Position numbers and translations under genes: made by a program. Below are positions 4,621 through 4,653 of a stretch of 5,077 nt of DNA, piece after piece (the first letter of the stretch is position 1; each line of letters starts with the position of its first letter). The stretch is from a virus (lineage: Duplodnaviria > Heunggongvirae > Uroviricota > Caudoviricetes). The stretch lies in IMG/VR virus record IMGVR_UViG_2713896779_000031; one strand, 5' to 3'. The notes below the pieces were generated by a model. The model was not told the origin of the DNA, ran no database searches, and saw only the letters and a list, made by a program, of their open reading frames with translations.

Positions 4621-4653
4621 CGGACTCGGGTTCAACTCCCGCCAGCTCCACCA
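4621..4653 (+). other. ssrA: att core: 33-nt copy of the 3' end of the tmRNA (ssrA) gene
   Basis: CGGACTCGGGTTCAACTCCCGCCAGCTCCACCA matches the T-arm/acceptor 3' end of enterobacterial tmRNA ending in CCA (recalled E. coli: GGACGCGGGTTCAACTCCCGCCAGCTCCACCA; one mismatch). Similarity stops abruptly upstream at AT-rich sequence, so this is a fragment (attP or prophage-end core), not an intact gene. Confidence 0.8.

Follow-up and report, generated by a model that had tools for sequence, protein, structure and literature searches.

The 33-nt copy of the 3′ end of ssrA, the tmRNA gene, that is located at positions 4621–4653 of the window (the whole 5,077-nt stretch of DNA that was analyzed, part of a 15.4-kb IMG/VR UViG contig) very probably marks the place where two different prophages meet in tandem. 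The order in the source genome would be ssrA, P1, core and P2, where P1 is the element whose int arm fills positions 1–4653 and P2 is a second prophage at ssrA that begins immediately to the right of the core. On this reading the core is a hybrid that serves both as the attR of P1 and as the attL of P2, and is not a phage attP. The earlier note had recognized the fragment as the att core of an element that targets ssrA and had left open whether it represents attP or one prophage junction; the right-hand DNA, which is that of a second ssrA prophage, answers this question in favor of a junction. The features of the window are collected in Table 1.

Table 1. Coordinates of genes and sites in the 5,077-nt window and the basis of each assignment.
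Feature	Position	Strand	Basis
Excisionase, xis	444..650	+	PHROG phrog_2917, E = 7.7e-44
Tyrosine integrase of P1, heterobivalent, with N-terminal arm-binding domain, int	611..1777	+	Pfam
AAA-family ATPase, cargo	1836..3569	+	Pfam AAA_15, AAA_21
D12-class N6-adenine DNA methyltransferase, cargo	3649..4548	+	Pfam MethyltransfD12
Candidate arm-type Int sites of P1, P arm, AGACATAAAAGGAGCCGCAAAAGATCCGCAG	4541..4571	+	Inferred from repeats
ssrA 3′-end copy, att core	4621..4653	+	Very probably attR core of P1 = attL core of P2
Left (P′) arm of P2, PhiR12/LMessi-type ssrA prophage	4654..4806	+	Sequence identity
Repeated 20-mer ATGCACGTAAAATGCACGTG in P2 arm	4746-4765
Terminator-like hairpin and T-run	4780-4806	+	Terminator scan
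Two LexA (SOS) box-like sites upstream of dinI	4863-4881, 4891-4910 (4863..4910)	+	Read by eye
dinI-like gene of P2, pseudogene, runs off the window	4924..5077	+	Pfam DinI, 5.5e-05

The identity of the fragment is clear. The 3′-terminal 33-mer of E. coli ssrA, CGGACGCGGGTTCAACTCCCGCCAGCTCCACCA, has one match in the window, which is on the + strand with a single mismatch, such that 32 of the 33 bases equal ssrA nt 331–363. The sole difference is T4626 in place of host G336 (ssrA nt 336, in the first T-stem pair), and the 27 nt that follow (4627–4653) equal host ssrA through the terminal CCA, which coincides with the boundary of the element. The fragment spans both halves of the T-stem, the T-loop, the 3′ acceptor strand and the CCA, and it lies on the same strand as int. 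Upstream of 4621, alignment with the 363-nt ssrA of E. coli 042 gave no further ssrA similarity. What had been described from the letters alone, a copy of the ssrA end that includes CCA, is oriented like int, ends abruptly upstream and carries a G-to-T difference in the T-arm, is therefore confirmed against the host gene, and no full ssrA is present in the window; what has to be corrected is the length of perfect identity, which is 27 and not 33 nt.

A full-length or permuted tmRNA gene was considered for this region and rejected, as ARAGORN reported no tmRNA gene in the window and the Rfam tmRNA and tmRNA_permuted models gave only sub-threshold matches that are driven by the 3′ end. The tmRNA match (4551–4653) reaches 24.7 bits, below the gathering score of 47, and skips 280 of the 374 model positions, with the 3′ end carrying the score, and a full-length functional tmRNA, with its tRNA-like domain, tag reading frame and pseudoknots, is not found in the window. 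The below-threshold Rfam score, and nothing else, would speak for a fortuitous match or for a degenerate ssrA duplicate that has no link to integration. Such an origin is extremely improbable given that the match extends over 32 of 33 bases while none of 200 dinucleotide shuffles of the window matches the 33-mer, that the boundary of the element is exactly the CCA end in dozens of genomes, and that integration of a close homolog at this site has been verified by experiment (PMC6456863).

The short region between the methylase stop codon and the core contains an A/T-rich 13-bp inverted repeat, AATAAAATGGTTA / TAATCGTTTTATT (4572–4601), which contributes most of the energy of the fold predicted here and could be a weak terminator of the cargo genes or a bending or host-factor site. 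A tRNA-like minihelix closed by GGAGC (4551) and GCUCC (4646) was also considered (z = −3.05) and discarded, as its energy comes mostly from the A/U-rich hairpin at 4572–4601, its 5-bp closing stem is within chance expectation and no support for it was found elsewhere. Similarly, the 9-mer TACGGACTC, which is repeated at 4619 and 4700, is at about the chance expectation for a 500-nt region.

Evidence that this core is the site of integration of P1 comes from complete genomes that carry the same int arm. It is present in 84 of 5,426 complete E. coli genomes with 98–100% identity, and no genome among those 84 covers more than 93% of the window. In every copy read the homology to the element halts exactly at 4653, the last base of CCA, and what lies to the right of this point belongs to at least six unrelated flanks across the genomes, which include P4-type integrase islands (two variants), an IS together with a P2-like phage, ypjA via a short flank, glaH via a short flank, and the dinI arm of the present window. 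In two strains the far end of the element was located. E. coli 042 has an intact ssrA at a distance of 27.7 kb upstream, separated from the fragment by prophage genes, and in ETEC4088 a seemingly complete lambdoid prophage of 45.2 kb lies between intact ssrA and the fragment. The same int arm thus closes prophages of 28–45 kb that begin at intact ssrA, with the gene and the fragment as direct repeats around them, and the second copy of the core that the earlier note had called for is the intact ssrA at the other end of the prophage. Both strains carry G336 in the full gene and T in the distal fragment, and the equivalent of T4626 is present in every attR copy of P1 that was read.

The closest characterized relative is the temperate phage ΦNP of Citrobacter rodentium (OR565852), to whose DNA positions 412–4653 of the window are 84.7% identical and with which P1 shares the order xis, int, AAA ATPase, (methylase region) and core. 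The P1 integrase contains Arm-DNA-bind_2 (PF12167, 5e-23), Phage_integrase (PF00589, 3.4e-16) and Phage_int_SAM_5 domains and is 93.3% identical to ΦNP Int over 388 residues. In ΦNP, attP consists of 25 bp copied from the ssrA 3′ end, and integration of this phage into ssrA of E. coli K-12, with the gene restored, has been demonstrated experimentally (PMC6456863). The two elements differ in that the core mismatch to the host is G338T in ΦNP and G336T here, which leaves 25 and 27 nt of perfect identity, respectively, and in that ΦNP has annotated contractile-tail genes (sheath and baseplate) whereas the P1 relative in ETEC4088 has lambda-like tail genes. Integration of P1 at ssrA is hence supported, by experiment for the homolog ΦNP and by the comparison of genomes here.

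In the well-known lambda paradigm, xis, int and att follow one another in this order with int transcribed toward att, the integrase is heterobivalent, and integration produces attL and attR in the manner described by Campbell. The P1 arm resembles lambda in its order of xis, int and att, in its heterobivalent Int and in the attL and attR products found in lysogens. Its excisionase gene is located upstream of int and shares its last 40 nt with the start of int, the homologous ORF of ΦNP is annotated as xis, and RefSeq calls the same CDS in E. coli 042. Unlike lambda, the target of P1 is the 3′ end of an RNA gene that is restored by the phage copy, and 2.8 kb of low-GC cargo is situated between int and att.

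Within this framework P1 is proposed to be a lambda-like prophage that entered the last ∼27 bp of ssrA by Int-mediated site-specific recombination. The 5′ part of the fragment, including T4626, would be phage P-arm DNA and the 3′ part would be the end of ssrA that P1 displaced on integration, while the working ssrA would be at the other end of P1 (attL) with host G336 kept. Because the working gene keeps G336 and T stays on the displaced fragment, strand exchange is placed 3′ of 4626, and Int acting on arm and core sites would exchange strands within 4627–4653, most likely in or near the 7-bp T-loop that is flanked by the inverted halves of the T-stem. Known tRNA and tmRNA integrases use sites of this T-loop/T-stem type. 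After integration, the phage-derived 3′ part and the terminator-bearing P′ arm of the phage would complete the working ssrA, and the displaced end of the gene would stay at attR. The fragment is accordingly not the replacement 3′ end that it had been taken for in the earlier note; it is the displaced end at the right junction, the working gene being completed elsewhere. The G-to-T difference would then be a base of the phage arm that never enters the working tmRNA gene.

The distribution of this base among genomes was followed with a 61-nt ssrA query carrying the T variant, which matched 4,461 genomes, with 4,460 records in the one-mismatch identity band and two in the ≥99% band. The eight highest-ranked matches listed were all full-length ssrA at 98.4%, and judging from these eight it appears that no complete genome carries T in full-length ssrA, since a perfect match would rank above those at 98.4%. 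Separately, the exact T-variant 32-mer (GGACTCGGG...CCA) occurs without the P1 P arm in 18 further complete E. coli genomes, which suggests that other elements share this variant of the core.

The two cargo genes between int and att (1836–4548) have a GC content of 28–36% compared with ∼45% in int, and the pair is conserved in ΦNP. The ATPase belongs to a PHROG family with no assigned function (phrog_3940, 6e-201) and has weak matches (∼1e-20) to generic ATPases of the PtuA/GajA/AriA type in PADLOC, while the methylase matches PD-Lambda-5_B over its full length (E = 5.8e-124). PD-Lambda-5 was nevertheless rejected as a name for the pair, as the methylase alone matches strongly and PD-Lambda-5_A was not among the best 25 of the 120 PADLOC matches for the ATPase. 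The pair may represent a variant form of the compact “RM+Abi” prophage defense system (Vassallo et al., 2022; PMC9519451).

To the right of the core the sequence is that of another element. The proximal arm (4654–4806) is 93.6% identical to the attL arm of PhiR12_1, PhiR12_2 and PhiR12_4 and is similar to those of PhiR12_5, LMessi and CP-1639. From the core rightwards (4621–5077 and a further 8.2 kb of the contig) the sequence shows 100% identity over 8.65 kb with a prophage found in E. coli O121:H19 and related strains, in which it lies directly against a full ssrA and includes the dinI pseudogene, espK, espN and nleL. A query made from the right flank was covered to at least 80% in 480 genomes. 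The dinI gene has an in-frame TGA at 5008–5010, where PhiR12_1 has CGA (Arg), and the identical copy in O121 is annotated in RefSeq as “DinI-like family protein, internal stop.” In O121 strain RM8352 no second core copy for P2 was found in the 70 kb that were read, and P2, which carries IS elements, is probably immobile in that strain.

Several smaller observations concern this side of the core. The two LexA-box-like sites, called on the LexA-box consensus CTGT-N8-ACAG, are both still present in front of the dinI pseudogene. The P′ arm of P2 also contains a tandem 11-nt repeat, GCAGACAGAGC / GCAGACCGAGA (4712–4733), between the core and the ATGCACGT repeats, and this may be a further protein-binding site. 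In the source contig beyond 5077 (the next 8196 nt) the type III secretion effector genes espK, espN and nleL come directly after dinI. Since these three genes are 100% identical to those of O121:H19 strains, they point to a source strain that is probably E. coli of the attaching-effacing or Shiga-toxin type.

The P2-type elements PhiR12_1, LMessi and CP-1639 are lambdoid phages with the same 27-nt ssrA core as P1, an integrase of the same family (P1 Int is 68% identical to the Ints of PhiR12_1 and LMessi), homologous and alignable P′ arms, and dinI by the core. The right flank of the window is of the PhiR12/LMessi type, but its integrase is not. The P′ arms of all elements compared are related, and the alignment shows that they differ in a block ∼83–115 nt after the core, which is GGATACG(C/T)AAAGGAGCCGCGG in P1, ΦNP and 042, and ATGCACGTAAAATGCACGTG in the window, PhiR12 and O121. 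Where both arms belong to one attP, the P arm repeats the element’s own block in direct orientation ∼50–80 nt before the core, and the repeated element is found on both arms at about −75 and +90. By analogy with lambda these blocks are putative arm-type integrase sites. For P1, the candidate sites in the P arm (4541–4571) match the P′ arm of the intact P1 of ETEC4088 as a direct repeat at the equivalent positions −80 and +83 (17/20), and ΦNP, whose candidate arm motifs are of the P1 type, has related sequence at the equivalent position. PhiR12_1 and LMessi have ATGCAC(G/T)T-N3-ATGCAC(G/T)TG on both arms in place of the GGAGCCGC type of P1.

The strength of these repeats was compared with shuffled sequences by means of the best 20-mer shared between the two arms. 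PhiR12_1 attP reaches 20/20, and the contiguous attP inside the LMessi phage record, as well as the P1 attP composed of the P arm of the window and the P′ arm of ETEC4088, reach 17/20, and in each of these three cases none of 60 shuffles attained the score; the 20-mer that PhiR12_1 and LMessi have on both arms is ATGCACGTAAAATGCACGTG. ΦNP attP gives 15/20 at equivalent positions (7 of 60 shuffles, not significant alone). The window as found gives 14/20 at non-equivalent positions, a score reached by 26 of 60 shuffles and hence at chance level. Its arms are mismatched across the core, with the GGAGCCGC type on the left and the ATGCACGT type on the right, and if the blocks are read as arm sites, the window joins the P arm of P1 to the P′ arm of P2. 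Arms of one element with the same repeats on both, as expected of a single-element attP, are thus not what the window contains.

It is nonetheless conceivable that the window represents a true attP, belonging to a single mosaic phage with the P1 int arm and a PhiR12-type dinI arm, in a circular or excised form or in a head-to-tail double lysogen. IMG/VR classes the contig as viral, the layout of int, cargo, core and dinI is also found at the attPs of ΦNP (a circular record) and LMessi, and the dinI-like gene by the core on the circular map of ΦNP counts against the tandem reading; because relatives such as ΦNP have it, the succession of int arm, core and dinI is not foreign to attP as such. 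We consider a mosaic attP to be unlikely, however, since the right arm shows 100% identity over 8.65 kb with a prophage resident in O121 that abuts full ssrA, contains a dinI pseudogene and, in the 70 kb of RM8352 that were read, is without a second copy of the core, since the arm next to ssrA in the intact P1 prophage of ETEC4088 is a different one, a P′ arm of the P1 type, since the repeated arm motifs do not match across the core, and since no phage record joins the P1 int arm to a P2 arm.

The exact junction between P1 and P2 is absent from the 5,426 complete E. coli genomes and from the GTDB species representatives, and in IMG/VR it is found in the source contig alone, a sequence taken from a genome record; among recorded gene products none spans the junction. 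That it was found nowhere else, in a draft-assembly contig of only 15 kb, and that the core must be present at least twice in any such genome, are what would be expected if a short-read assembler had joined the P1 int arm and the left arm of P2 through their shared 27–33 nt. Such an artifact is very unlikely, as normal reads and the k-mers in usual use are longer than a repeat of 27–33 nt, which is normally resolved, and as P1 followed by an older element is the order predicted for integration into an occupied ssrA, an arrangement of a kind that closed genomes also show. In the closed genome of 042, for example, P1 at ssrA is succeeded by an island that carries a P4-type integrase.

The preferred reading is accordingly the tandem of P1 and P2. 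P2, with a different type of integrase, would be the older prophage and would already have been at ssrA when P1 integrated into the same gene. The Campbell model predicts that such a newcomer is placed between the body of the gene and the older element. Excision of P1 should require just its own P and P′ arms, and P1 could in principle leave the array and restore the arrangement of ssrA followed directly by P2. We infer that a full ssrA is located upstream of P1 in the source genome, as the 15.4-kb contig ends before the far end of P1 and is too short to show it. P4-type integrase islands, such as CP4-57 of E. coli K-12 and the island after P1 in 042, use the same target gene, have their own terminator after CCA and occur in tandem with P1. 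They differ from P1 in the subfamily of their integrase (Arm-DNA-bind_3 and Phage_int_M) and in having int by the side of the intact gene and transcribed away from it.

In ETEC4088 a second P1-type P′-like arm with a terminator comes after the P1 attR core and precedes ypjA, and this junction looks like attP although it is chromosomal, which again cautions against inferring attP from layout by itself. At unoccupied sites, where a full ssrA is followed by a flank and glaH, the 152 nt after CCA, terminator included, are ∼90% identical to the P1-type P′ arm. This similarity takes in the block GGATACGCAA(A/C)GGAG(C/T)CGCG(G/A)CTCC, in which the palindrome GGAGCCGCGGCTCC is kept by paired C>T and G>A changes. 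Either the phage arm may derive from the flank of the host gene, or the “native” flank may itself be a fossil phage arm.

The P1 module is an instance of ΦNP-type integration at ssrA in a lambdoid prophage of E. coli, and this is ordinary biology that is already known, since near-identical copies are present in many RefSeq genomes and a close homolog has been characterized experimentally. The window shows exactly where a prophage common in E. coli ends on its right side, and its significance lies mainly in correct annotation: it spans two different prophages and not one. The arrangement of int, core and phage genes in a short contig can be the junction of a tandem array, and both arms should be checked before attP is called. 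The least ordinary features that are left, both of them modest, are the 152-nt flank of the empty site that resembles the P1 P′ arm and the apparent switch of paired arm motifs between two lineages of integrase. As to the latter, we propose tentatively, and with somewhat less than even confidence, that the P1/ΦNP and PhiR12/LMessi Int lineages, which act on one 27-bp core and in which the integrases are 68% identical, have swapped paired arm motifs, GGAGCCGC in the one and ATGCACGT in the other, at equivalent positions of arms that are otherwise alignable. If these are true arm sites, such a swap would allow two prophages to share ssrA in tandem and to excise independently, and would provide a compact natural example of arm-specificity switching.
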